Below are positions 6,915-51,181 of a stretch of 64,000 nucleotides of DNA, piece after piece (the first letter of the stretch is position 1; every line of letters begins with the position of its first letter). The DNA lies in IMG/VR virus record IMGVR_UViG_3300021420_000017, positions 64,001 to 128,000 of that record. One strand, 5' to 3'. The notes beneath the pieces were generated by a model. The model saw only the letters and a program-made list of their open reading frames with translations. It searched no databases and had not been told where the DNA came from. This DNA comes from a virus. Made by a program: the position numbers and the translations under genes.

Positions 6915-7201
6915 CCAAACCGACATGGGGCGATATGCGAGCCCAGAGAGATCCCGAATGGGACGCTGAGCAAGTAGCGAGGGTCGATCCCGAGGAGCCG
7001 GTAGAGGGGACGGTACTGCGCTTCACCAAGGCTCGCTGGGGCAAGCCCTATAGCTACGCGGCGATCAGGGCGGTGGATGTGTGGTATCTGACCAACGGTC
7101 AGCATTACCTCTGGCGCGAGCTGCTCGACTTCATCCAGAAGGGTGAGGATGTCGAGGTTGTGGTGGAGAAGTTCTTGCCTCATGCCCCGTCCGGAGATTG
7201 A
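6911..7201 (+). CDS. hypothetical protein
   Basis: ATGA overlap. Contains YSYAAIR..WYLT. Confidence 0.6.
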   Translation: MTKPTWGDMRAQRDPEWDAEQVARVDPEEPVEGTVLRFTKARWGKPYSYAAIRAVDVWYLTNGQHYLWRELLDFIQKGEDVEVVVEKFLPHAPSGD

Positions 7202-37861: not shown

Positions 37862-38836
37862 ATGACCACCACGATGGTCCCCCAGGGCATCAAGCCGCCG
37901 ATGTCGTCTGACGACTATGTGAGCGCGATCTTGGCCCGCCACGAGGGCAAGAAGGCCTCCTCGTCCAGCAAGCTGACCGCCATCGCGCGAGTGCTCGCTG
38001 ATGAGGTCAGCGGCTTCAAGCGCCTGGGCGTCGGCATGATCGGCCCGATCCAGCTCAAGCTGCGCTACCAGGGCATCACCCGCAACGTGCTGGTCGAGGA
38101 CCCGGTGACCCCGGGCACCCCGGTCGAGTACGACGTGTGGGACGACCTGGGCCAGGCGTACGTGCTCTCGGGCCACGACGGCGAAGTCAATATCACGATC
38201 TTCGAAGGCAAGCGTGTGCGGGTCGACTTCTTCCGGATCGCGGCTCAGGCCCAGATCCGCAAGGAAGACCTGATGTACCTGCGCATCAACGCCGTCGAGC
38301 AGGCCCAGGACGAGACCAAGCAGTCGATCCTCAAGCAGGAGGACTCCCGGCTGATGGTCGTGCTCCAGGGCGCGCTGAACGACTACAGCACCCGCCCGGA
38401 TCACACGATCACCCCCAACCACACCATCACCGAGACCTCGGGTTACTTCACCCCGACCTCGCTGTACACGGCGGTGGCCCAGACCGACATGCACGAGCTG
38501 GTCGCCAGCCGCATGCTGGTCAACCCCTATGACTACCGGGACTTCTTCCGGTGGGACATCAACACGACTGGTTGGGCCTTCAAGGACCGGGTCGTCGCGG
38601 GTGAGACCATCACCAGCTTCGGTGAGTTCCAGTTCCAGCGCTCGATCATGGTTCCGCAGAAGACCATGTACCTGCTGCCCGAGCCGAACTTCCTCGGTGT
38701 CTTCCCCGTCCTCTACAGCCTGGACGTTGAAGAGAACCACGTGGTGGATCGCTTCATGCGGGGATGGGTGTTCGATGAGATGGTTGCACAAATTGTGCTA
38801 AATCCTCGTGGAATAGCAGCAGTCGTAAAGCCCTAA
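37862..38836 (+). CDS. major capsid protein
   Basis: 324 aa with extreme G/C-ending codon bias. MIGPIQLKLRYQGITRNVLVED...GWVFDEMV..LNPRG matches my recollection of cluster-C-like capsids. Confidence 0.85.
   Translation: MTTTMVPQGIKPPMSSDDYVSAILARHEGKKASSSSKLTAIARVLADEVSGFKRLGVGMIGPIQLKLRYQGITRNVLVEDPVTPGTPVEYDVWDDLGQAYVLSGHDGEVNITIFEGKRVRVDFFRIAAQAQIRKEDLMYLRINAVEQAQDETKQSILKQEDSRLMVVLQGALNDYSTRPDHTITPNHTITETSGYFTPTSLYTAVAQTDMHELVASRMLVNPYDYRDFFRWDINTTGWAFKDRVVAGETITSFGEFQFQRSIMVPQKTMYLLPEPNFLGVFPVLYSLDVEENHVVDRFMRGWVFDEMVAQIVLNPRGIAAVVKP
38719..38784 (+). repeat. 66-bp inverted repeat, left copy (inside the capsid gene)
   Basis: Base-by-base identical to the reverse complement of 41108-41173. 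Confidence 0.97.
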
Positions 38837-38874
38837 ACTACCATCTCATGAAATCGTAGCACAGTAAGATACAG

Positions 38875-38917
38875 ACAACAAGAGCCCCACGCCATCGCGG
38901 CGTGGGGCTCTTGTTGT
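38875..38917. terminator. bidirectional terminator after the capsid gene
   Basis: acaacaagagccccacgcc-atcgc-ggcgtggggctcttgttgt. Confidence 0.8.
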
Positions 38918-38933
38918 TGCGTCGATCCATAGG

Positions 38934-39377
38934 CTATCTCGTCACGTATTCGCAGTCCTTCTCGGTGAAGTCGCTGCGCAGTCCGGCAAGATACTCGCCC
39001 AGGAAATATGTAGCGGAATCATGAGTCTTGTCTTGCTCGACTAGTTTTTCCAACTCTTCCAGGATCTGGGTGGCCGTACTGGAGGTCAGAACCAACAACC
39101 TGACCCCAGTTGAGGCGAACCACTCCCAAGACAACAAGTCGAATGTCGTTGGCTGCCGTTCTTCGTCTACGACATCGAGAGCCAATCCCGACTCTGGAAT
39201 CCAGAGTGAGGGAGAATAGGATCCGCGCACGCTAAAAGTTCGATCAATCCAACTCACAGGCGCATTTCGGTAAGTATCCACCTCATGCTGCGCGAGTGTG
39301 CATGCTTGAATCCAATCGCGAGGGTCGGTCAGCGTACTGATTACGTGAGTCGGATAATACTGTTGGTCCTTGATCAT
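38934..39377 (-). CDS. degenerate PD-(D/E)xK-like protein
   Basis: YSPSLWIPESGLALDVV aligns with the neighbour's YDPDFWLPQYEVAVETK but lacks the catalytic D and K. Confidence 0.5.
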   Translation of the reverse strand: MIKDQQYYPTHVISTLTDPRDWIQACTLAQHEVDTYRNAPVSWIDRTFSVRGSYSPSLWIPESGLALDVVDEERQPTTFDLLSWEWFASTGVRLLVLTSSTATQILEELEKLVEQDKTHDSATYFLGEYLAGLRSDFTEKDCEYVTR

Positions 39378-40066
39378 CGGTTACGCTCCTGAGCTATAAG
39401 TGATTGAATAGACTCGCTGAAGTTTTCTCCTGATAGTTTCCGTAAGTCTTCTTTGAATAAGACGACCAGTAAACGACCAGTTGCTCTATAGGCAGCCCAT
39501 TGAGCGTGCATGTTGGCTCGTGGTACTCCCTTAGTCTCTACCGCTACCTCATACTGAGGGAGCCAAAAGTCGGGATCGTAGTTAGACAGATCGTTGGATT
39601 TATCCCAGGGAATCAGGAAGCGCTCATCGAATCGCTCTATTCGAACTTTGGATATTTTGGCTAGTCCCCAAAATAGCGCCTCGTAGGAAGACTGAAGCAC
39701 GATAACATGCTCAGTCTGATCATCGATGGTCTTGATGTTTTGGTGCACTTTCAGTCCACGTCGAGCACATGCCTGATTGTGGAACTGCCGATGAGAAGAG
39801 GCTCGGTGTTCGAACTCAATGCCACACCACCCACACTTTGAGGTGGTCCATTTCGATTCGTCTCGCTGGCGCCTGACCGAGGCCGCTCTCCGGCATTCAT
39901 GACTGTGGTAGAGACGATTGGCCGCAGAGACAGGTTTGTCGCAGGCGGGGTTGGCGCATTTGGGTCGAGGTTGATCTACCCGGCGCGCGCGATTGTTTCC
40001 TCCGTGATGATTCCTAGAGATCTGGGGGACGGGTAGTGGCTTAGCTGCCCAGTTGTCGTCACTCAT
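39374..40066 (-). CDS. Zn-finger plus PD-(D/E)xK endonuclease (homing-endonuclease-like)
   Basis: CANPAC..YHSHEC; CGWCG..FHNQAC; QSSYEALF...YDPDFWLP...VETKG. Confidence 0.8.
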   Translation of the reverse strand: MSDDNWAAKPLPVPQISRNHHGGNNRARRVDQPRPKCANPACDKPVSAANRLYHSHECRRAASVRRQRDESKWTTSKCGWCGIEFEHRASSHRQFHNQACARRGLKVHQNIKTIDDQTEHVIVLQSSYEALFWGLAKISKVRIERFDERFLIPWDKSNDLSNYDPDFWLPQYEVAVETKGVPRANMHAQWAAYRATGRLLVVLFKEDLRKLSGENFSESIQSLIAQERNR

Positions 40067-40995
40067 GCTCTGGGCTTCCTTCCAGGAGAGCGAACTTGGC
40101 GTCCTTCAGCCACGAGCCACCCACGCACCGTCTGATAGGACCTCCCTAGGGTGTCGCAGACATCGGAAAGGGTCATACCCATGTCGAAATAGCGAACTGC
40201 CTCAGCAGCTTGTTCGCGGTCGCGGAGATAAATCCCTCCCTCGGTAGTGATTCCACGTTCTTCAATAATCTTGCGCACGGCATCTTGGGAGATATTAAGT
40301 TCTTTAGCAACTTCTACTATAGTATTACCTTTAAGGTACGACTCGGCGATCTCGTCCGATCTATCTGGTTTAAGACGAGCAGGGCGCTCCTTGTTGATGG
40401 GGGTCAGCCCTAGCTCTCGTAGCCATATCTCTGCGGTTCCGTAGTGGATTCCCAGTTGGGTCGCGATATCGAAGGCAGCTATCCCCGCATGATGAAGAGC
40501 GATGACGTTGGGGAGAAGGGAGGGCTTTTTCCCGATTTTGCGTCCTCCGACTTGGAACCGGAACCCCTCCTTGGCGAGCCACCGACTGACGGAGTCCGGG
40601 GTAAATCCGAATCGATCCGCGATGGACTCGCGAGATTCCCCTGCCCGAGCGGCCTTGAGCATTGTTGGAATGGCATCCTCACGACGGCGTTGATCCTCGG
40701 AGTAAGCCGTGAGGCCTTCTTGCCTGAGCCAACGACTCAGAGTCGTGTAGGGCACGTTGATCTCGTCTGCGATCTCGGGTGCAGTCCTCTTCTTCGCAAT
40801 GAGAGTTTGGATCAGCGGGAGATGCTGGCGCTTAGCGCTGCGCTTGGCCGCAGTGAGAGACAGACCCGCCTCTTTGAGGAGTATTCTGACACGATATGCC
40901 GGAATCTCTGCGGAGACTGAGATCTCTTCGGCGTTCGCCCCTTGGTGGTGCGCTCTGACGATGTAGCTCAGGAGATCAGGGCTGATAGGATCCAC
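40063..40995 (-). CDS. protein made of six tandem helix-turn-helix units
   Basis: Six units of about 50 aa of the form Gx(S/T)xxEIAxxxxxxxxTxxxWLxxxG. GTG after CAGGAAGG. Confidence 0.8.
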   Translation of the reverse strand: MDPISPDLLSYIVRAHHQGANAEEISVSAEIPAYRVRILLKEAGLSLTAAKRSAKRQHLPLIQTLIAKKRTAPEIADEINVPYTTLSRWLRQEGLTAYSEDQRRREDAIPTMLKAARAGESRESIADRFGFTPDSVSRWLAKEGFRFQVGGRKIGKKPSLLPNVIALHHAGIAAFDIATQLGIHYGTAEIWLRELGLTPINKERPARLKPDRSDEIAESYLKGNTIVEVAKELNISQDAVRKIIEERGITTEGGIYLRDREQAAEAVRYFDMGMTLSDVCDTLGRSYQTVRGWLVAEGRQVRSPGRKPRA

Positions 40996-41107
40996 AATGA
41001 AGCCTTCCTGTTGGTGCTGGTGTCTCGACAACCCCAGTCTTCAGGAAGGTTTCCCTATTTGTCAAATCGAGTAGGAACTCATCCCACTGTTAATAGCGAT
41101 TCGGAAG

Positions 41108-41173
41108 ACCATCTCATCGAACACCCATCCCCGCATGAAGCGATCCACCACGTGGTTCTCTTCAACGTCCAGG
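41108..41173 (-). repeat. 66-bp inverted repeat, right copy (intergenic)
   Basis: Exact reverse complement of capsid bases 38719-38784. Confidence 0.97.
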
Positions 41174-41199
41174 GAGCCCCAAAGGAGATGCTATGACCC

Positions 41200-41517
41200 A
41201 TGAAACCGACGTTGAGCCCCGACGGCGACTGGAAGGAGGGAGAGGAGTTCGACTACCCCGACGACAACACCTCGGCTGACTGCGGAGGCTGCGATCAGCA
41301 CTGGCAAGTGCATGATCACATGAAGTGGATCGCTGACGGCTGCGCGACACTGAAGGATGTCATCGCGCATGTGGAGGCCTTCGCGGCTCACCTATGGGCG
41401 CGCAAGGAGGCTGGCTACGAGCTTGCGGATCTGGTGGACAACGGTCACATCATCTACAAGCAGTTCGAGGATGATCCCCGGGAAGAGCAGTTTCGGGTCG
41501 AGCGCAGCGCTAGCTGA
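41200..41517 (+). CDS. hypothetical protein
   Basis: AAAGGAG upstream; CGGC..HWQVH; followed by a terminator. Confidence 0.6.
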   Translation: MKPTLSPDGDWKEGEEFDYPDDNTSADCGGCDQHWQVHDHMKWIADGCATLKDVIAHVEAFAAHLWARKEAGYELADLVDNGHIIYKQFEDDPREEQFRVERSAS

Positions 41518-41573
41518 GAAGGTCTGGCGCTGCTAGAGTCCGTCTCGGGCCTACCCAGGCTTCGACCCTTAGC

Positions 41574-41620
41574 CCAAGACCGGGACCTCTCCTTCGCGGA
41601 GGGGTCCCGGTCTTGGTTTG
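41574..41620 (+). terminator. intrinsic terminator
   Basis: ccaagaccgggacctctcc-ttcgc-ggaggggtcccggtcttgg followed by tttg. Confidence 0.75.
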
Positions 41621-41744
41621 TCTCCCCGACAGGATCCGTCCGAGACGATAGCGCTTCATCCATGGTCGGACGAGATCGTAGGCATAGCGTCTTGTGTGAC
41701 ACCTGGATGACTTTGACCCTTTAGGCGCCGGTAGGATGCGCGGT

Positions 41745-42245
41745 ATGAGCACCCCCGTCCTCACTCCAGGTCAGTACGTCACGGTGCCCGGCAGCGGCTT
41801 CGTCTGCTGGTGCATCCGAAAGATCACCCGATCCCCGGTGGCGCATGCCTTCCTCTACGTGGGCCCGCAGGCCGACGGGACCGACATGGTGGAGGCTGAG
41901 CCCGGCGGGGTGCGCTTCGGCCGCACGAGCGACTACCCGGTGCGCTATGTCTCTGGGCGAGTGCTGGATCCAGCGGTCGCGAAGGCGATTGCGGAGACCG
42001 GGATCGCGATGGCGAGCAAGGACACTGACTACAACTTCCTGGCGGACTTCTATCTCGGGCTGCGCGAGGGTGCGCGACTACCTGTTCCCCAGACTCTGTT
42101 CCGGCTCGCCTCGACCGGTAAACACGTCGAGTGCGCGCAGCTTGTCGATTACGCATACCTCGTAAATGGGGCACATCTCTTCGAGGACGGGCGCTCGCCC
42201 GGCGCTGTCTCCCCGGGCGACCTGTGGCGGTTGGACTACCACTGA
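41745..42245 (+). CDS. permuted papain-like (NlpC/P60, YiiX/YebB-type) amidase
   Basis: His precedes Cys: SPVAHAFLYVG...VEAEPGGV...YNF...ECAQLVDYAY. Confidence 0.75.
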   Translation: MSTPVLTPGQYVTVPGSGFVCWCIRKITRSPVAHAFLYVGPQADGTDMVEAEPGGVRFGRTSDYPVRYVSGRVLDPAVAKAIAETGIAMASKDTDYNFLADFYLGLREGARLPVPQTLFRLASTGKHVECAQLVDYAYLVNGAHLFEDGRSPGAVSPGDLWRLDYH

Positions 42246-42268
42246 CCTGCTCCGCGCGGGATGGATGC

Positions 42269-42303
42269 TGCCCTCCGCGCCGCTGGAGCCCCTGAAGTAG
42301 TGA
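42269..42303 (+). promoter_or_regulatory. putative late promoter, copy 4
   Basis: TGCCC-N19-TGAAGTAGTGA. Confidence 0.75.
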
Positions 42304-42373
42304 AGAGGACTCTGCCTCGTGATGCGGGTCTTCTTCGGGTCGGTGCTCAACTCAACCAGCGCGGAGCTGAACT

Positions 42374-43048
42374 GTGACGGCTGATTTCAAGCAGGGCGCC
42401 TCTCTTCTCGGAGGCGTGCTGGCCTCGGGGTGCGTGAATCCCACCTATGCCTGCGCTTTCACTGGCTCTCCGACCGGTGGCACCTTCACCGTATCCATCA
42501 CCACCGGGATCGGTGGTGTCTCAAATACTCAGTCCACCGGGGCGATCACCTACTCCGCGAGCCTGACAGCGGCCTCGATTCAGGCCACGGTGCAGGCACT
42601 GCCCGGGATGTCGAGCGTCATGGTGACGGGCCCCAACGGCGGCCCTTTCACGTTCACCATCCCGAACTCGCTGGGCGTGTCGACAGTGTCGATCTCGGCG
42701 CAGGCCCTGACCGGTGGATCCACTCCTTCGGCCGCGATCACGAGCAATGGGGTTTCGACCTTGCTCTACGCGGTCCCCGTCGCCTCAGCCGTCAAGGTCG
42801 CGACATTCTACGTCAGCGCGGCGGCCGGGCAGGCAGGCTACCTATCGATCTCCGTGATCCCCAATGGGGGCGCGCAAGACGGAACTCACGTTGCCGTTCC
42901 GGGCTACCCACTCGTGGCCTACGACTTCCTGAGTCAGGAGGACGTCCTGTCCGTCGTTAAGGGCGCGATGTGGGATGCCGGGACCCAGTTGTATCTCTAC
43001 TGCCCGGCCGCCGTCACCTATGGTCTCACCGGGGCGGTGTCGTCCTAG
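42374..43048 (+). CDS. virion structural protein
   Basis: TGGTFTVS...TGAITYSASLTAASIQATVQAL...VTGPNGGPF, a module typical of actinophage tail proteins. Confidence 0.65.
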   Translation: MTADFKQGASLLGGVLASGCVNPTYACAFTGSPTGGTFTVSITTGIGGVSNTQSTGAITYSASLTAASIQATVQALPGMSSVMVTGPNGGPFTFTIPNSLGVSTVSISAQALTGGSTPSAAITSNGVSTLLYAVPVASAVKVATFYVSAAAGQAGYLSISVIPNGGAQDGTHVAVPGYPLVAYDFLSQEDVLSVVKGAMWDAGTQLYLYCPAAVTYGLTGAVSS

Positions 43049-45120
43049 TGCCCGGCTTTTCCGCTCTGAATAAGCGCACGCCGCGCACCAACCCGGCCGA
43101 CGCTCGCTATGACGCCAACGGGGCAGCGTCCGCAGCGATTGCATCCTCTGCACAGAAGGCCAATAACGGGTCAGACTTCGCGGACCCCGGATCGACCCGA
43201 TCGAACCTACAAGTTCCGATGCTCGGTCCATGCAAAGCCGTCGCGACAGCAAATATCACCCTGTCGGGAACGCAGGTAGTCGACGGCTATGCGGCAGGGG
43301 TCGGAGACCAGATTCTCGCGAGCGCGCAGACACTGGGCGCCCAGAATGGCCCCTGGGTGGTCGCTACCGGGGCCTGGACTCGTCCCACTGATTATGCGAG
43401 CGGTTCGGTCATCAAGGGGCGCATGCTCCAGGTCAACACTGGCTCAACAGCCAACATCGGTCTCTGGACGATGTTGGCTTCTACCTCGGTGACAGTCGAT
43501 ACCACAGCCACGACGTGGGTTCCAGCAGGTCAGGCGCGCAACGATGCAAGGTACGACGTGGCTGGCGCCGCTGCCACGGCGCAGACAGCAGCGCAGGCGT
43601 ACACGGACTCTGAAACGACACGGGCGCAGACAGCAGAGCTGCTGGCAGCCAAGAAGTCCGCAAACCTTTCTGACCTGACAAGCACCTCGACGGCGAGAGC
43701 CAACATCAGCGCGGCCAAGTCGGGTGTGAACAGTGACATCACCAGTCTGACGGGGCTCACGACCCCGTTGGCGGTCTCCGAGGGCGGCACGGGCAGCGCC
43801 TCCCAGAACTTCGTTGATCTCTCGACAGCCCAGACGGTTGCGGGTGTCAAGACGTTCTCCAGCGCGCCGGTGGTTCCTGCCGCCTCGTTCCCCGAGTCGG
43901 CCGTCACCGGCTTGGTTGCCGACCTCGCGGCCAAGGCACCACTTGCCTCTCCCACTTTCACCGGGACGGTCACTACTCCTGTCCCGGTCAACGCGACCGA
44001 CGCCGCGACGAAGGCCTATGTCGACTCGGTTGCCGCCGGATTATCAACGAAGGCATCATGTCGTGTCGCTACGACCGCCTCGCTTCCGGCCAACACCTAT
44101 GCGAGCGGAGTACTGACTGCTAATGCCTTTGGAGCTTTGACGGTCGATACGGTTGCCGTTTCGGTTGGCGACAGAATTAACGTCAAGAATGAAACGGCCC
44201 AGGCTAACAACGGGCTGTATGTGGTCACTGCGACGGGGAGTGCGGGAGCGACCTATGTGCTTACCCGCACCTCGGACATGAACACCGGGGCGCAGATCCC
44301 GGGTGCCTTCGTCTTCATTGAGCAGGGATCTGCGAACAGCAGTTCTGGTTGGGTGGTCGGCGCCGCCGGTCCCTACACGCTCGGAACGACAGCCATCATT
44401 TGGACCCAGTTTTCCGGTGCCGGTGAGATCACTGTCGACTCGACCCTCACCGAGGCAGGTAACCAGATCTCTCGCTCGGCGATCACAGGTGACGTCTCAG
44501 TCCCTGCTGGATCAAACGTGGCAACGCTGGCCACAGCAAACGCCAATACGGGCTCCTTCGGCACGGCATCTCAGGTCCCGACGCTGACGCTGGATGGCAA
44601 GGGGCGGACGACGGCAGCAGCCAACACGTCGATCCAGATCGCGGAATCCCAGGTCACTGGACTGACTGCCGACTTGGCCGCGCGGAGTACCACTTTAGTT
44701 CTTAAGCCCGTGCAAACGGCCTCATTTACTGCAGTGGTAGGGAATATCTACCCGATTAATGCCAACAACGCTGTGATAGTCACGCTCCCCACCGCTCCTG
44801 CGGACAAGTCGATCGTTCAGTTCAAGGTCACTATCGGATCCACTGTCGGGTTGCCCACCGGTGGCCAACTCAATAATCCGGTTATTTACAACACCGGTGG
44901 CTCAGATGTCATCAATGTGGCTGGTGGCGTTACCACTGGGCATTTATATCTGTTAGACCAGGCCGTTACCCTTCAATATGATCAGACGACCGCCGTCTGG
45001 ATAGCTACCGGTGACGATTTACCGCTCGCTCAGCTCGATGCCCGCTATGGGCCTTCGACTCTTGATGGGGGCGCCCCGGGCGTACCAAATACTGACACCT
45101 ACGACGGAGGGGCACCATGA
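43048..45120 (+). CDS. tail fibre protein
   Basis: KANNGSDF / KSANLSDL fibre repeats; two GDRxxVK...NGxYVV...WTR modules; DAATKAYVD; C-terminal DGGAP x2. Confidence 0.8.
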   Translation: MPGFSALNKRTPRTNPADARYDANGAASAAIASSAQKANNGSDFADPGSTRSNLQVPMLGPCKAVATANITLSGTQVVDGYAAGVGDQILASAQTLGAQNGPWVVATGAWTRPTDYASGSVIKGRMLQVNTGSTANIGLWTMLASTSVTVDTTATTWVPAGQARNDARYDVAGAAATAQTAAQAYTDSETTRAQTAELLAAKKSANLSDLTSTSTARANISAAKSGVNSDITSLTGLTTPLAVSEGGTGSASQNFVDLSTAQTVAGVKTFSSAPVVPAASFPESAVTGLVADLAAKAPLASPTFTGTVTTPVPVNATDAATKAYVDSVAAGLSTKASCRVATTASLPANTYASGVLTANAFGALTVDTVAVSVGDRINVKNETAQANNGLYVVTATGSAGATYVLTRTSDMNTGAQIPGAFVFIEQGSANSSSGWVVGAAGPYTLGTTAIIWTQFSGAGEITVDSTLTEAGNQISRSAITGDVSVPAGSNVATLATANANTGSFGTASQVPTLTLDGKGRTTAAANTSIQIAESQVTGLTADLAARSTTLVLKPVQTASFTAVVGNIYPINANNAVIVTLPTAPADKSIVQFKVTIGSTVGLPTGGQLNNPVIYNTGGSDVINVAGGVTTGHLYLLDQAVTLQYDQTTAVWIATGDDLPLAQLDARYGPSTLDGGAPGVPNTDTYDGGAP

Positions 45121-45623
45121 GCACGTTGCTCGGCGACATCCTGATGAAGCGTGGAACTGCAGCACAGTGGACTGCCGCCAACGACGTTCTCCGTGCCAGC
45201 GAGCATGGATATGAGACAGATACCCACAAGCAAAAGATCGGCGATGGCACCACTGCGTGGAACTCACTGGCTTACACTTCCGGGCCAGGCCTTTGGTCGC
45301 TGCTGATCGAGAATGTCAATGCGGTCGCGACATCCGGTGCTGCGGTGACCATTCCCGACGTCACTGTCGCCACGCTCAACCGCGTGGTGTTGACCGCCAA
45401 CTGCACTCTGACGTTTCCTACTGCTGCTGCGGGTAAGACTTTTCTGATCGCTCTCGTTCAGGACGGGACCGGTTCTCGGACCGCGACCTGGCCGAGCACA
45501 GTGAAGTGGCCTTCCGGGACCACGCCGACGCTGACGGCGACGGCAAACAAGACCGACCTGTTTTCGTTCTCCTGCTTGGATGGAACGAACTGGCTATCCT
45601 TGGTTGTCGGCCAGGCGTTCTAA
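45117..45623 (+). CDS. minor tail protein with Mtd_N-like N-terminus
   Basis: ILMKRGTAAQWTAAN..L...E.GYETDTHKQKIGDGTTAWNSL; C-terminal QDGTGSRTATWP..VKWPSG..PTLT. Confidence 0.75.
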   Translation: MSTLLGDILMKRGTAAQWTAANDVLRASEHGYETDTHKQKIGDGTTAWNSLAYTSGPGLWSLLIENVNAVATSGAAVTIPDVTVATLNRVVLTANCTLTFPTAAAGKTFLIALVQDGTGSRTATWPSTVKWPSGTTPTLTATANKTDLFSFSCLDGTNWLSLVVGQAF

Positions 45624-46282
45624 TGCGAGCTTCGCATCTCGTCCTGTGTCAACCTCCTCCCAGTGGAGGTAGCGGTATTGCTGTACGCAGTTTCGCATTA
45701 GCCCACACCATTGCTATCGGTCAGGGCCCGGCTATCACGTCAGCCACATATAATGGCGGCGTTACTCCGGTGGCGGGCGATTTGCTGATTGCGTTTGTTA
45801 GTATTCGAGACGCTGGTGGTTTAGGCGAGGCTGGTCCGATTAATACGCCCACCAACTGGACTGCGCGGGGTCATATCGATACTTCGCCGGATAACTTCTC
45901 GTTAGCGATGTTCAGCAGGATAGCGACTGCGACGAGTGCCGATAACATTACACCCGCCAGTTCTACTGATGCGGACTTCGAGGATGACTACGACGTCGCG
46001 GTTATTGCAGTGAAGAACACAGCGGGAGTAAGTGGCACCCCACCCACTCCAGTGAATAGTAGCACCGCGCCATCTACGGGATCTGTAGGAGATCTTCTTA
46101 TTGGAGGCTGGTTTCAATATCCCGCAGGGTCAAACACGGGACTTCCTGGGTCCATGACTCAGATCGTGTCCGATAATACTGACGACCCACAGCTCTCAGT
46201 TGGATACGAGCTGCTTGCCAGTCCTGGGACACGAACTGGGACTGGCACATACGCGGCAGTCATCGCGGCAGCCCACCTCTGA
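45623..46282 (+). CDS. tail-fibre-associated beta protein
   Basis: AGDLLIAFV...PTNWT...SLAMFSRIAT pattern; TAATG coupling. Confidence 0.6.
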   Translation: MRASHLVLCQPPPSGGSGIAVRSFALAHTIAIGQGPAITSATYNGGVTPVAGDLLIAFVSIRDAGGLGEAGPINTPTNWTARGHIDTSPDNFSLAMFSRIATATSADNITPASSTDADFEDDYDVAVIAVKNTAGVSGTPPTPVNSSTAPSTGSVGDLLIGGWFQYPAGSNTGLPGSMTQIVSDNTDDPQLSVGYELLASPGTRTGTGTYAAVIAAAHL

Positions 46283-46297
46283 TGAGGAGCCGGTGAT

Positions 46298-47758
46298 ATG
46301 GCTACGCTAGTTGATGGAGGAGCCCCGTCGGGGGCTAGCACATCCGACACCATCAGCGGCGGCCCCGACAATGACGTCACACTGCCCATCGCGCAGACCG
46401 ACGTCACGGGGCTCGTCGCAGCGCTGGGGGCCAAGGCGGACGCGACGGCCACTACGACAGCTCTGGCCGCGAAGGCGAATGAGACCGAGCTGGCTGCCTA
46501 CGTCAAGACGATCAATCATGCCTCTCCTGATGGCTCAGGCGACGTGGAAGTGGTCATACCGTCAGCCACGGGAGTGGTCCCTTATCACAATCACAACCAC
46601 CTCGTAGAGCCTCTGGGGGTTGTTAAACACACTGCATCGATGTTGGCGGCCGAGTTCACGATCACTCAAGGCTTGAACGTCTTCATCGTGAATGCCAACT
46701 CGACATTCACCATCGAGGCCCCGCAGTTCGCCGACTCGGAATACAGTCCGACCAGTGGCGCCCGTACACCCTTCGGGTCGGCCGGACCCGAGTGGTACTC
46801 CACTGCCGCCGGTGGGAGCCAGTTCGGCGCGTTCCCGTTCGAGACGCGGCATATCATCGACGTCGCCGTGATCCAGGATGACGTCGGCGGTCATAGCGTC
46901 ACGTTCCAGAACCTTTTCGAGGGTGCGCCCGTGGCGCTGACCACCGGCGCGACCTACCCCGGTCCGGCAACCACTACTGCGAATGCTGTTTCATTTTGGC
47001 GATTCACTTGGTATGGGCTCCCTCTTGGTTGGGTGCGCGACCTCCTCGGTGATGGTGCCGCAATGACGATAAAGCCTCTGCCATCATCGACATCCACCTA
47101 TATCCGAGGCCACTACGTCAGCACGTGCAGTGCTGCTGACGCCACAGCTATCGTTACCAACCTCAAGATGATCCCGCTGAACGCCAGGAAGGTTCTCTAC
47201 GCGGCGGGCCTATACGCCGAACTTGCGCCGGGCAACCAGTCCCCGAGTTTGATCTGCATCCATAGCGGCGATCTGCCGGGAAGTCGATCTCAAACAGGTT
47301 CCCGACCTCTGACCAGCTTCACCCGGCTCGTGTCTCCAAATGGCAGCGGTGTCGGTGCGGCCTCTTGGACAAACAACGTCAATCCCGTGCTACATGAGTC
47401 TGGCCACGCACTGGACTTCATCCTCTATCGCAATGGCGTACCGGTCAGCGGGACGACGTACTACCGTGTGGGCGATGATCCGAGATTCATCTCTTTGTAC
47501 AATACCTGTGTTCCTCGTTCTTGGACTGGACGCAACGACTACTACCTCGTTGACAATGCCTTCTCAGCCGGGGGGATCGGCAAGAATGAGTGGATGGCCC
47601 AGATGCTGGGCTGTTACACGTACTATTTGTATCTGACGAACAACTCGTTATCGGACGCGACTCTCCTCGAAACCGAGTGGAGTGGCGCAGCGCCGGACGA
47701 CATCATCGCCACCTTCAAAACGACCGCAGCCTCAGCGTTATCAGCATGGTTGTCGTAG
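46298..47758 (+). CDS. tail-region protein with a C-terminal zinc metallopeptidase motif
   Basis: N-terminal LVDGGAP; VLHESGHALD (HExxH) with a downstream EWMAQ. Confidence 0.65.
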   Translation: MATLVDGGAPSGASTSDTISGGPDNDVTLPIAQTDVTGLVAALGAKADATATTTALAAKANETELAAYVKTINHASPDGSGDVEVVIPSATGVVPYHNHNHLVEPLGVVKHTASMLAAEFTITQGLNVFIVNANSTFTIEAPQFADSEYSPTSGARTPFGSAGPEWYSTAAGGSQFGAFPFETRHIIDVAVIQDDVGGHSVTFQNLFEGAPVALTTGATYPGPATTTANAVSFWRFTWYGLPLGWVRDLLGDGAAMTIKPLPSSTSTYIRGHYVSTCSAADATAIVTNLKMIPLNARKVLYAAGLYAELAPGNQSPSLICIHSGDLPGSRSQTGSRPLTSFTRLVSPNGSGVGAASWTNNVNPVLHESGHALDFILYRNGVPVSGTTYYRVGDDPRFISLYNTCVPRSWTGRNDYYLVDNAFSAGGIGKNEWMAQMLGCYTYYLYLTNNSLSDATLLETEWSGAAPDDIIATFKTTAASALSAWLS

Positions 47759-47812
47759 CTCATCCGCGATGTGGCGTCGATCGTTTGTCCCGGCATATAG
47801 AAAGAGGTTGAT

Positions 47813-49126
47813 ATGGCTACGTTGGCCGATGGAGGCGCTCCCTCGGGAGTAAGCATCTCAGATTCCATCATCACGACGGCCCTGGTCGCGAAGGCTGATC
47901 TCGTTGGCGGGATAGTGCCCGAGACGGAACTGGCGGGGTATGCGAAGAAGGCCAATAACGGGTCAGACTTCGCGGACCCCGGGTCAGTGCGGGCGAACCT
48001 GAATGAGCCGGTGCTCGGCTCATGTCAGGCCGTCGCGACAGCAAATATCACCTTGTCGGGAACGCAGACGATTGATGGTTACGCGGCTGTCGCAGGAGAT
48101 CGCATCCTTGCCACTGCGCAGACCACGGGCTCGCAAAACGGCCCCTGGCTAGTCGCTTCAGGAGCCTGGACTCGTCCTACTGACTATGCGAGCAGTGCGG
48201 TCGTGACTGGTCGCACCGTCCAGGTGCGCACGGGCTCGGCTTCGAATATCGGCCTGTGGACATTGCTCACCTCAACATCTGTGACGGTCGACACGACAGC
48301 GACCACGTGGTCGCTGGCTGGCCGAGCAGCAGGCGATGCGAGGTACGTCATAGGTCTAGCGGGGGCTGCCGTCATTACGACCTCGGCGACGCCTGTTGGC
48401 GGGAAGAAGAACTCTTACAATGCCTCGGGCGGCTCACTCACTCCAAGCCTGCCTGCCCTATCGGGATTGTCGGCTGGTCCGACCGAGTATTACGTTGAGA
48501 AAAGTATTGCAGACACCAGTGCAAATACCATTACCTTTGTGTGTGCCGGTGCGGACACTTTTGATTACAGCCCAACTGCGACCAGTCTTCAGCTCGTTGA
48601 GCCCAGTGAATGGTATGTGTTAGTGGTCGTATCGATTAGTGGCACGAAGTATTGGTCTATCAAAGGGATGGGGGCGGGCCGGTTTCTGAACGACGCGCGG
48701 TATGCATCTGGGACGCTTCTGGCCACGGCAACTGGCGCCACTGGTTCTGGGTCGCTGACATCGACGTCGACTAACTACGTTGTCGGGAGTAGCGCGGTCA
48801 CAATAGTGCTTGCGTCACAGCGGCGCCTGCGGATCGCGGTTAACGCGCTGATCATCCCGGGCTCGTCTACCCCGGGTACTTATACCGTCTTCCCGGCCTA
48901 CAACTCAGGGGGGTACAACCTCGCCGGAGCAGGTCAAGTGGGTTCTTGGGGTGCGCAGGGGAGCACGACTAACAACCAGGGAATAACCATCTCTAAGGAA
49001 GACAACATTCTGTTGTCGGCCGGTACTTATACGTTTTATCCGATAATCCAGCGGCTGTCGGGCGGGTCTACGACAGATACAGCGAACTACGGTTACGTTG
49101 CCGTCTACGATGCAGGGCCATCGTAA
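47813..49126 (+). CDS. tail fibre protein
   Basis: LADGGAP N-terminus; a module of about 135 aa paralogous to the one in 43048..45120. Confidence 0.75.
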   Translation: MATLADGGAPSGVSISDSIITTALVAKADLVGGIVPETELAGYAKKANNGSDFADPGSVRANLNEPVLGSCQAVATANITLSGTQTIDGYAAVAGDRILATAQTTGSQNGPWLVASGAWTRPTDYASSAVVTGRTVQVRTGSASNIGLWTLLTSTSVTVDTTATTWSLAGRAAGDARYVIGLAGAAVITTSATPVGGKKNSYNASGGSLTPSLPALSGLSAGPTEYYVEKSIADTSANTITFVCAGADTFDYSPTATSLQLVEPSEWYVLVVVSISGTKYWSIKGMGAGRFLNDARYASGTLLATATGATGSGSLTSTSTNYVVGSSAVTIVLASQRRLRIAVNALIIPGSSTPGTYTVFPAYNSGGYNLAGAGQVGSWGAQGSTTNNQGITISKEDNILLSAGTYTFYPIIQRLSGGSTTDTANYGYVAVYDAGPS

Positions 49127-49185
49127 CGGGATGATCCATCGATCCGACCACTTGATACTCGCCTCGATCTTGGTAGGTTCGGTTC

Positions 49186-49809
49186 ATGAGAAAAGACCCT
49201 GATACCCCGATCTACAGTCCTAATGCGGTAGAGATCCGCGATGGTGCGGTGCACTACCACTTCGCGGATAAGGATCTGCAGAGCTACATGGAGACCAACT
49301 ACGGCTTCGTGTGGGACCCGGATCACGACTGCGGGCCCAACCTCTACACCGGCGTTCATCACTATGGGGCCTACGTAGCCAAGGCGAGCTGGATGCCGGA
49401 CGGAAGTCTGCATATTGGCATCAACCAGGGCATCCGGGCCTGGCACAACACTCAGCCGGAGTTGGTTCGGCAAGACGAACTCGCCAAGGAGAAGGCCACC
49501 AACGCCAAAGTCCTCGGGATCGGCATCTGGCAGACCATCGGCTTCATCGCCTTCCTGATCGCGATGGGCACAAGCAGTCATGCGGATACGAACTTCGCCC
49601 CAATCTTCATCATCGGGTGGATCATCTGGATCTTCCTGGGCTTCCTCCCGGTGATCATCAACTACGAGCCCAAGAGTGAGCTGGGCAAGTTCATTCACGA
49701 GATCAGTCCCTATATCGGGGCCGCGATCGTGGCCAAGCACGTCTACGATCGCCACGAGAAGAGGCAGGCCGAGCAGATCGCGGACGCGGTCCGAAGGGGA
49801 CTCCTCTAA
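49186..49809 (+). CDS. membrane protein (moron-like)
   Basis: Two to three TM helices in the C-terminal half; TTGATA-N16-TAGGTT 6 nt before the ATG. Confidence 0.7.
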   Translation: MRKDPDTPIYSPNAVEIRDGAVHYHFADKDLQSYMETNYGFVWDPDHDCGPNLYTGVHHYGAYVAKASWMPDGSLHIGINQGIRAWHNTQPELVRQDELAKEKATNAKVLGIGIWQTIGFIAFLIAMGTSSHADTNFAPIFIIGWIIWIFLGFLPVIINYEPKSELGKFIHEISPYIGAAIVAKHVYDRHEKRQAEQIADAVRRGLL

Positions 49810-49823
49810 CGGGCGACCGGCCC

Positions 49824-49858
49824 TGTCTCAGGCGGTCTTGCGGGACCTGAAGTAGTGA
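49824..49858 (+). promoter_or_regulatory. putative late promoter, copy 5
   Basis: TGTCT-N19-TGAAGTAGTGA. Confidence 0.75.
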
Positions 49859-49900
49859 GGGCCACTCCAGGCGGCCATCCACACACCTGAGAGGTTCATC

Positions 49901-50485
49901 GTGGGAAAGCAAGTTACCGTTTTGAGCGGTTTCACTGATGTCGCTCTGCCGAAGATCTACACGGTCCCGGTCTCCTCGGCGGTCGCGGGCACTCCTGCCC
50001 AGACGGTCCAGGTACTCGGCGTCGGCGGCTACAACGCGGGCGACACGGTGACCCTGACCGACGCTGAGTATGCCGCGCTCTCGGCCGCCGTCACCCGGGC
50101 CCTGGGCAGCCCCACCACCGTGGCGCAGCCCTTCCGCCCCTCGGCCGATCCGACGTCCTCCAAGGCCACTGTGGCGGCCACCACGTCGGGCACCATCGCC
50201 CTGGCGCTGGGCTACAACATCGTAGGCCCGGTGACCGGAGCCACCGTGCTGACGCTGCCCGCTGCGGGTGCGGGCTGGACGGCGGGATCGCGCTCGACGG
50301 TCAGCGTCAAGATCACTCAGGACGCGACCGGCTCCCGGGCGATCACGCACCCGACCGGGGTCCGCTGGTTCGGGGGATCTGCTCCCACTGCGACCACCAC
50401 GGCCAGCAAGGCGGATTACTTCGAGTATTTCAGCGATGACGGTGGAGTGACCGTGTACGGGCGAGTGCTCGGGCAGAGTGCCTGA
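49901..50485 (+). CDS. virion structural protein
   Basis: N-terminus paralogous to 60010..61404 (MGKxVxVxxGFTDVxLP); C-terminal QDATGSR..T.P..VRW.GG.AP module. Confidence 0.7.
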   Translation: MGKQVTVLSGFTDVALPKIYTVPVSSAVAGTPAQTVQVLGVGGYNAGDTVTLTDAEYAALSAAVTRALGSPTTVAQPFRPSADPTSSKATVAATTSGTIALALGYNIVGPVTGATVLTLPAAGAGWTAGSRSTVSVKITQDATGSRAITHPTGVRWFGGSAPTATTTASKADYFEYFSDDGGVTVYGRVLGQSA

Positions 50486-50497
50486 TTGATGTGAGCT

Positions 50498-50542
50498 AAC
50501 AGCGCACCGAGGACTCCGCTCTGGTCCTCGGTGCGCTGTTTC
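50498..50542 (+). terminator. intrinsic terminator
   Basis: aacagcgcaccgaggac-N9-gtcctcggtgcgctgtt. Confidence 0.75.
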
Positions 50543-50550
50543 ATCTGTCC

Positions 50551-50585
50551 TGTCTGAGTGATACCTGGGACAAGTGAAGTATCGA
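50551..50585 (+). promoter_or_regulatory. putative late promoter, variant
   Basis: TGTCT-N19-TGAAGTATCGA, directly after a terminator. Confidence 0.55.
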
Positions 50586-50614
50586 CAGCCTCCATCGTGA
50601 AGGGAACCACCGAC

Positions 50615-51181
50615 ATGCCTGTGTCCGACCTCATCCGCGCCAGTGATTTGACCCGCATGGCCAATGAAGGCGCCACCATCGTGGTGCGTAATACTCAGCC
50701 CGGCATCACCACCCACACCGACGAGCTGCTCAAGCAGACGACCGAGTGGACTGGCGCAGGTGATACCAGCGGCGGGGATGTGCGCGAGGTCCCGGCAGCC
50801 TACCTCAAGAACCCGAGCTTCCGTGATGCGATCATGCGCGGGATCTATGTGGTCGAGGACGGTGAAGAATCGCTGATGAAGGCGGTCGAGTCCCTGCGAG
50901 CCGACTGGGACGGTCGCCAGCAGGCCAAGCTCGACTCCAACGAGACGCTGAAGCGCTCCTCCAACAAGTCGATCGGCAAGGGTGCCTCCTGCATCGCCCC
51001 CAAGGGCACGTCTCTGTGTGGCAACATCTCACTCGTGCTCGGCGACGAGGACAACCCCAAGCCGCCTCTGTGTGGCGAGCACGCGCACATGAGCACGCAG
51101 TACGCCCAGGTCCCCACCGGCCGTCTGGTCAACAACAAGGAAGAGAAGACCTGGCGGCGCGGCTCGGTCGCGGCTCACTAG
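50615..51181 (+). CDS. hypothetical virion-region protein with a Cys/His motif
   Basis: RBS GAAGGG; C..C...LCGEH. Confidence 0.7.
   Translation: MPVSDLIRASDLTRMANEGATIVVRNTQPGITTHTDELLKQTTEWTGAGDTSGGDVREVPAAYLKNPSFRDAIMRGIYVVEDGEESLMKAVESLRADWDGRQQAKLDSNETLKRSSNKSIGKGASCIAPKGTSLCGNISLVLGDEDNPKPPLCGEHAHMSTQYAQVPTGRLVNNKEEKTWRRGSVAAH

Follow-up and report, generated by a model that had tools for sequence, protein, structure and literature searches.

The window analysed here (64,000 nt; positions 64,001 to 128,000 of the IMG/VR virus record IMGVR_UViG_3300021420_000017) carries a major capsid protein gene whose 3′ part is present a second time, as a perfect inverted copy of 66 nt, at the head of a reversed nuclease cassette. 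The left arm of this repeat (A, 38719-38784, plus strand) lies within the capsid gene. The right arm (A′, 41108-41173, minus strand) lies 113 nt upstream of the probable start of the first cassette gene, which encodes a helix-turn-helix (HTH) protein. With a probability of about 0.5, we favour the reading that the right arm is a mimic of the target site of a homing-endonuclease gene (HEG), a landing pad like the I-TevI operator, and that it was recently homogenised with the resident capsid gene.

A repeat search gave two arms of 66 nt each, 100% complementary, with 2323 nt between them, in agreement with an earlier note on this DNA that had described an exact 66-bp inverted copy of the capsid 3′ end. 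In the whole 146,650-bp record, the arm sequence occurs in these two copies only. In the Logan unitigs of run X1, the repeat formed a unitig of its own with a depth of 34.3, against 17.8 in the left flank, 17.2 in the island between the arms and 16.1 in the right flank. A repeat depth about twice that of the flanks and an island depth equal to that of the phage imply two arms per genome and an island belonging to the phage. An independent contig (L087, MEGAHIT, k141) had the repeat and spacing identical to those of the window, and a 244-kb JGI concatemer contig from another sample had the same gene order in both its copies. The left arm was joined to the recoded capsid tail described below in a contig from an RNA library (X2) and in a 1.6-kb JGI contig from a third sample (L148).

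The alternative that this structure is a chimeric join or a mis-oriented segment could appeal to the Logan unitigs and contigs, which were built with k = 31 and break at the repeat, so that island orientation and minority forms are invisible at that k. This alternative is close to refuted by the doubled depth of the repeat, by the same layout in three assemblies and by the conserved capsid tail, which is obtained in the observed orientation only. These results answer the doubt about misassembly raised in the earlier note. The 244,627-bp JGI contig (3300050821) contained the capsid-cassette region twice; it therefore spans about 1.67 genome lengths and is a concatemer or a circularly permuted assembly of the 146.6-kb phage.

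The capsid gene (37862-38836, plus strand, 324 aa), the presumed homing target, matched the major head protein family phrog_2522 (E 1e-94), and its product was 57% identical to gp79 of Rhodococcus phage E3. A cement-protein gene (PF23968) precedes it, in the same cement/capsid order as in phage E3. These matches place the phage among the relatives of Rhodococcus phage E3. The left arm covers capsid codons LDVEEN...FDEMV and encodes LDVEENHVVDRFMRGWVFDEMV. Its end is the most conserved stretch of the capsid protein (SLDVEENH.V..F.KGWVFDEMV), with a core conserved in the family (the FWKGWVFDEMV codons in relatives) at about 38753-38784. The nucleotide homology of most relatives to the window capsid gene stops at 38784/38785, exactly where the arm ends.

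The rest of the gene (38785-38836, AQIVLNPRGIAAVVKP and the stop codon) encodes an orthologous protein sequence with third codon positions shifted to A/T. The GC content at third codon positions (GC3) was 0.24 in these last 17 codons and 0.87 in the 60 preceding codons, which bears out the earlier note and is the most extreme difference among 69 loci; a codon-by-codon comparison with the relatives' loci L004, L006 and L007 gave the same picture. The tail protein sequence is conserved across relatives, and its P-R-G and K are essentially invariant in more than 80 of them. The change in tail GC3 relative to upstream codons was -0.17 in cassette-bearing loci (n = 28) and -0.06 in cassette-free loci (n = 41), a significant difference when loci are treated as independent (Mann-Whitney p 2e-5), with the window as the extreme case. 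The target of the carrier thus differs from cassette-free alleles at the presumed site, as is expected for HEG immunity, both in the drop in GC3 and in the displaced tails described below. These patterns suggest that the binding site would be the conserved codons before the tail, that the cut would fall in the tail and that recoding of the tail would confer immunity. In locus L023, where no cassette was detectable, the capsid tail (about 6930-6981) was A/T-recoded as strongly as that of the window (GC3 0.35 vs 0.95). L023 may represent a lineage after cassette loss or an escapee from another attacker.

We fetched 80 related capsid loci from IMG/VR and further loci through homologues of the nuclease. 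About 27 non-redundant loci of E3-like phages had such a homologue, with or without the HTH array, directly 3′ of the capsid gene. The cassettes in these loci were all on the capsid strand; that of the window was the only reversed one found. There were 41 cassette-free loci with enough downstream sequence. This sporadic presence at a fixed site beside an essential gene, among syntenic relatives, is a signature of free-standing homing endonucleases, and the island is predicted to be a free-standing HEG cassette. In many relatives, the HTH array and the nuclease are fused in one open reading frame (ORF) of 350-520 aa. In other loci, the N-terminus consists of Zn ribbons only, and several unrelated N-terminal architectures occupy the same slot. 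Alignment-based scans for further HTH-type cassettes found L094 and L100 only.

In four loci (L010:7626-7691, L102:1413-1450, L105:863-988 and L109:2834-2908), the nuclease ORF extends into a displaced copy of the capsid tail and terminates at the stop codon of that copy. These tails are at the far end of the cassette and differ synonymously from the resident tail. In L102, for example, ...RGIATITKTP is present twice, identical in protein sequence and 76% identical in nucleotides. The displaced tails imply that the cassettes of these four loci lie within the 3′ end of the capsid gene and provide it with a replacement for its tail.

Sensitive nucleotide and translated searches detected a diverged copy of the FWKGWVFDEMV codons by the 5′ end of the nuclease gene in at least 12 relatives. 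Inverted mimics between the capsid stop codon and the HEG start were found in L010, L011, L022, L027, L040, L042/L094, L065, L089, L102 and L111. In L014, a direct copy abuts the HEG start. No comparably placed copy was found in HEG-free loci, and the only other hits were a distant match in L046 and a weak match in L051. The earlier note had suggested a search for the same layout in related phages; its mimic was thus recovered in diverged form, and its flipped cassette in none of them.

In the lineage of L022, L065, L089 and L100, whose cassette proteins are 50-66% identical, the mean pairwise identity of the four mimics was 0.74, compared with 0.25-0.56 for the adjoining spacers and 0.65 for the -35 to -10 region. 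Derived bases absent from the resident capsid genes are common to the mimics, such as A in place of C in the Phe codon and GTA in place of GAC. The mimics therefore evolve with the cassette and are neither re-copied from the resident gene nor paired with it, which argues for a function at the DNA level and against RNA pairing.

Two further observations concern the form of the mimics. L027:5335-5522, just before the HTH-nuclease gene, is one nested palindrome. It combines the last 25 nt of the capsid gene with a terminator stem of 34 nt and an inverted, diverged version of the entire capsid 3′ end, which includes the tail and contains a frameshift. The mimic measures about 30-40 nt where the cassette has four HTH units, and the six-unit HTH protein of the window goes with the 66-nt copy, about 11 bp per unit. 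L110 also has six HTH units, yet a vestigial mimic at most, and the correlation of unit number with length is anecdotal.

In the mechanism that we propose, the HTH array would bind the conserved capsid codons of the left arm, and the nuclease would cut the adjoining tail codons in cassette-free rivals. The carrier would be spared through its own synonymously recoded tail. The right arm would be the cassette's own copy of the binding site, about 45 nt upstream of its -35-like element, and most likely a non-cleavable landing pad that enables the protein to sense its own expression or to keep it in check. The flank of the right-arm mimic differs from any capsid tail, which is consistent with a site that is bound but poorly cut. 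The likeliest cause of the perfection of the 66 nt would be that the resident capsid gene recently converted an older mimic, for instance when an occasional cut within the mimic was repaired. The codons completed at the edges of the right arm, TCC (Ser, 41174-41176) and GTC (Val, 41107), are those of the family majority, whereas the resident gene has AGC and GTT; a chance match for the Ser codon has a probability of roughly 1 in 10, and blastn matches of relatives reach 41176. Family-majority codons at the edges would fit an older mimic with its centre overwritten by resident sequence. Once the whole cassette and its mimic were flipped, target and mimic would become an inverted bracket around the cassette.

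The closest described counterpart is the operator of I-TevI, encoded in the td intron of phage T4. It lies upstream of the ORF of I-TevI, resembles the homing site at 15 of 20 nt, and is bound equally well but cut about 100-fold less (PMC2988022). Putative operators of I-TevII and of I-TevIII were also described (Edgell et al. 2004, reviewed in PMC2988022). As in I-TevI, the HEG of the window is preceded by a copy of that part of the homing site which the DNA-binding domain would recognise, the copy would lack the cleavage determinant, and binding and cleavage sites appear to be separate. The two differ in that I-TevI is an intron-encoded GIY-YIG enzyme, whereas the predicted nuclease here is of the PD-(D/E)XK type and free-standing, with a DNA-binding module that is a separate 6xHTH protein. 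The copy here is perfect over 66 nt. The I-TevI operator overlaps its promoter, whereas the mimic here, at which binding and repression would take place, lies upstream of the promoter-like element. The right arm may therefore be operator-like in action: it has homing-site-like sequence upstream of an ORF and does not overlap the putative promoter, and so is no occluding operator of the I-TevI type. The statement in the earlier note that no described system has this layout was too strong, both because of the I-TevI operator (PMC2988022) and because diverged versions are common in the E3-like phage family.

The promoter-like element, TTGACA, a 17-nt spacer and AAGACT (41037-41065, minus strand), was assigned by eye. 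In the same by-eye alignment, it corresponds to TTGCCA-17-TACTGT in L110 and to TTGCAA-17-TACGAT in L022, each followed by a shared GGTTGTCGAGAC block. A consensus sigma-70 scan of 38600-41400 called no promoter, including this element.

Several points count against the landing-pad reading. We infer binding, the cleavage site, autoregulation and gene conversion from the observed anatomy, family context, mimics of relatives and recoding, and the promoter from inspection. L110, the relative with the most similar 6xHTH array, has no more than its vestigial mimic. The gap from the mimic to the -35 element is about 25 nt in the L022 lineage and about 45 nt here, and the promoter-like element is not overlapped. 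A run of 66 perfect bases exceeds what a binding site needs. The orientation of the mimic relative to the HEG is unlike that in most relatives, although L014 shares it. The GC3 test ignores phylogeny, and the test of mimic conservation consisted of four sequences.

The three genes that the earlier note had placed on the minus strand between the arms were confirmed (P0003, P0001 and P0002). The island has a GC content of about 50%, compared with about 64% in the flanks. P0003 (40063-40995) is a tandem 6xHTH DNA-binding protein resembling Cbp1 in its tandem HTH units (HTH_23, E 1e-23; HTH_28, E 2e-21). Its likely start is GTG at 40995, after an AGGAAGG ribosome-binding site; the longest ORF begins at 41031, and the gene caller gave 310 aa. 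P0001 (39374-40066), a predicted nuclease of 230 aa, has two Zn ribbons and a PD-(D/E)XK core, of which E129, P165-D166 and E177-x-K179 were invariant in ten homologues (alignment A7). Searches of Pfam, NCBIfam and PDB sequences gave no significant family for P0001. In a Foldseek search of the PDB with an AlphaFold model (pLDDT 77.6), the best domain-sized matches were the catalytic domain of I-Bth0305I, a Vsr-like endonuclease, TnsA and VRR-NUC. These matches were uniformly weak, with E no better than 0.025 and TM no higher than 0.61. Judged from the model, P0001 is PD-(D/E)XK-like, and its PHROG label "HNH" stems from the Zn-ribbon part. With the I-Bth0305I catalytic domain (PDB 3r3p) and the Vsr- and TnsA-like nucleases it would share the restriction-endonuclease-like core fold; the matches are weak, and the motif here is E...PD...ExK. 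The architecture of two Zn ribbons, HTH array and nuclease had no counterpart in Pfam, NCBIfam or solved structures, and no relation to solved structures at the sequence level.

P0002 (38934-39377, 147 aa) is a degenerate paralogue of the nuclease core (BLASTP against P0001, E 3e-4 over the PD...ExK region) with its catalytic positions replaced. It had no family in Pfam, PHROG or NCBIfam, no significant match among PDB sequences and no homologue beside the cassettes of relatives. A complex prediction for the nuclease core and P0002 scored 0.00, which is no evidence either way. P0002 may be a partner, an inhibitor or a relic. IMG/VR contained no close relatives of the three island proteins and hence no sister genome with which the flipped layout could be compared.

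An insertion by-product without function, which the earlier note had listed among its options, is the main rival and a live one; we regard it as possible but rather unlikely. In this explanation, a sibling genome with a cassette in the usual orientation was the source of a block that comprised 66 nt from the 3′ end of the capsid gene, the cassette and a 10-mer. This block was then re-inserted backwards after the capsid stop codon, by template switching or when a break induced by the nuclease was repaired through microhomology. The right arm would be a left homology arm that was dragged along, perfect since the event was recent. The boundaries of the island agree with such an event. On the minus strand, the order is right arm, pseudo-tail, promoter-like element, ribosome-binding site, HTH gene, nuclease, paralogue and terminator. 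Apart from the reversal of the whole, this is the canonical cassette layout, in which the capsid 3′ end and its stop codon are followed by promoter, HTH, nuclease and terminator. At a distance of 3 nt past the capsid stop codon, the final 10 nt of the left arm (ATGAGATGGT) are present again in inverted form (38840-38862, minus strand; the exact 10-mer is at 38840-38849, and weaker similarity extends to about 38862). Three copies of the 10-mer are present in the window, all at the capsid locus, where 0.18 would be expected by chance. The 10-mer at 38840-38849 is a direct repeat of 41108-41117 and therefore delimits an inserted block. From its sequence, this block is the reverse complement of "arm, cassette, 10-mer", placed directly after the capsid gene. 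A recent duplication would be expected to leave perfect identity and sharp ends, and rearrangements are known to arise from HEG-induced breaks and co-conversion (PMC2988022).

Three observations are at odds with the by-product. The right arm continues in the capsid frame into a pseudo-tail of 14 codons (41062-41107, minus strand; FRIAINSGMSSYSI and a stop; codons 41107-41065, stop 41064-41062), which a tblastn alignment matched to the capsid C-terminus. This pseudo-tail lacks the family-invariant LNPRG...K and overlaps the promoter-upstream region of the cassette, whereas a recent capture from a viable donor should keep a working tail. The right arm is also flanked by family-majority bases. 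Moreover, a copy of the segment has been retained next to the HEG in at least 12 relatives, and in the one lineage tested it is conserved above its surroundings; the copy here is thus no accident peculiar to this genome. A single inversion or a single homing event cannot convert the canonical layout to the present one; at least a reverse-orientation insertion or two template switches are required.

The earlier note had proposed an invertible switch, and perfect inverted arms are found inside the 3′ part of a structural gene. Homologous recombination between the arms, for which 66 bp suffices, would flip the 2.3-kb interval between two functional states. The flip would exchange 16 capsid C-terminal residues for 14 and place the nuclease operon behind the strong capsid gene without a terminator. 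The capsid frame is open for a similar length in both directions, with a shared I-x-(L/I)-N...G-(I/M) pattern. In the Mu G segment (Gin) and the P1 C segment (Cin), inversion swaps the C-terminal end of a structural protein of the phage. These segments too have inverted repeats in the 3′ part of a structural gene, and inversion here would likewise exchange C-terminal codons. Here, by contrast, the arms are copies of coding sequence and not recombinase sites, and neither serine nor tyrosine recombinases (PF00239, PF00589) had a match in the 146.6-kb, 94%-complete genome, while control genomes scored. A single orientation was seen in four assembled copies (three assemblies) and in two left-junction contigs, although contigs drop minority forms. 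Patterns specific for the flipped and the observed junctions had no match in viral_contigs, which is uninformative since that collection is without the window's own record. Flipping would replace the family-invariant LNPRG tail with one that is not conserved: the alternative tail lacks the P-R-G and K, and partly overlaps promoter-upstream sequence homologous to non-coding DNA of L110. Such a switch is therefore very unlikely. Flipping at a low frequency by general recombination may still occur.

A related and still improbable idea is that identical arms are kept because the cassette uses them, either for recombinational flipping or for repair from the capsid gene of a mimic cut by the nuclease. 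Flipping would alternate between a nuclease operon that is silent and antisense and one that the capsid promoter drives, the latter combined with a second C-terminus of the capsid protein. Repair would make the mimic a self-renewing copy of the target, so that the landing pad would continue to match the resident allele of the capsid gene.

The right arm overlaps no plausible gene, in accordance with the earlier note, which had also considered that it is read as antisense RNA to the capsid mRNA. Read-through on the plus strand or the 5′ leader of the downstream gene would carry the arm as 66 nt of antisense, and the long duplex would be processed or would tune the expression of the capsid or the downstream gene. 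Any transcript spanning both arms would form a perfect 66-bp duplex, and the right arm ends 26 nt before the next start codon on the plus strand. However, a strong bidirectional intrinsic terminator (38875-38917; 20-bp stem, 12 GC pairs) separates the capsid gene from the cassette, as the earlier note had stated, and thus stands between the arms. The sigma-70 scan found no plus-strand promoter-like site upstream of the right arm. Mimics of relatives mismatch their resident capsid gene and do not track its synonymous changes, and mimic orientation relative to the transcribed strand varies between the window, L014 and other relatives. We consider a role at the RNA level most unlikely. The capsid 3′ end folds strongly (z = -5.8); the fold uses the 10-mer and the terminator, and the right arm takes no part in it. 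In both RNA and DNA folds, the 10-mer pairs with 38768-38784 around the tail and stop codon. Contigs X2 and L148 end at about 38886, inside the terminator stem, consistent with the 3′ end of the capsid transcript; contig ends cannot prove this. In the run of the RNA library, neither the island nor the right arm was covered by a contig, which is uninformative on expression.

The earlier note had further proposed a target-derived guide or decoy for the nuclease. The right arm is target-derived, is at the head of the cassette and would be a protein-binding mimic; the RNA-guide part of that proposal found no support. The vrRNA array of VIPR consists of alternating GGY/NN units (bioRxiv 10.64898/2026.04.26.720920). 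Neither strand of the window contained five or more GGYNN units in a row or a 7-of-8 near-run, and the right arm copies its target exactly and contiguously, unlike the gapped code of such guides. A template and variable repeat like those of diversity-generating retroelements was rejected as well: the copies are identical and do not differ at adenines, and the three island proteins had no Pfam reverse transcriptase.

Intronless homing is another close counterpart. SegF, SegG and MobE of T-even phages (PMC2988022, PMC2790892) likewise have a nuclease gene beside a conserved essential target gene, a carrier protected by site differences and a sporadic distribution among syntenic relatives. They belong to other nuclease families; here, in addition, the cassette would supply the recoded 3′ end of the target, relatives keep the displaced original and the cassette is reversed. 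HEGs are enriched near capsid genes (PMC10448857). What is new here is an HTH/Zn-ribbon/PD-(D/E)XK family holding the capsid slot of E3-like phages, a reversed cassette and a 66-nt perfect mimic.

Homing endonucleases shape the mosaicism of phage genomes. To our knowledge, self-regulation of a HEG is documented essentially for I-TevI of T4 alone. Dozens of soil actinophages with one capsid-gene slot and several cassette architectures form a large natural series, whose sequences show a presumed binding site, a recoded immune allele, the displaced original end of the gene and a conserved mimic of the target. For a nuclease family without a match in Pfam, NCBIfam or solved structures, the presumed target and operator thereby become directly testable. 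The window is the cleanest test substrate because its 66-bp site is defined to the base, and it is also a natural case for the behaviour of a perfect inverted repeat in a replicating phage genome.

The right boundary of the island is the next plus-strand gene (41200-41517, 105 aa, Zn-ribbon-like), which had no homologue in the loci of relatives. Its ribosome-binding site begins 8 nt past the right arm. In the cassette-free loci L019 and L020, a homologue of window 50558-51181 lies within about 100 nt after the capsid gene. In the window, about 11.7 kb (38836-50558) separates the two, and this interval includes a 716-aa Ig/fibre-like protein (42970-45120) and a crotonase-like ORF of 169 aa (41736-42245). 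The capsid-connector junction is thus a large plasticity zone.

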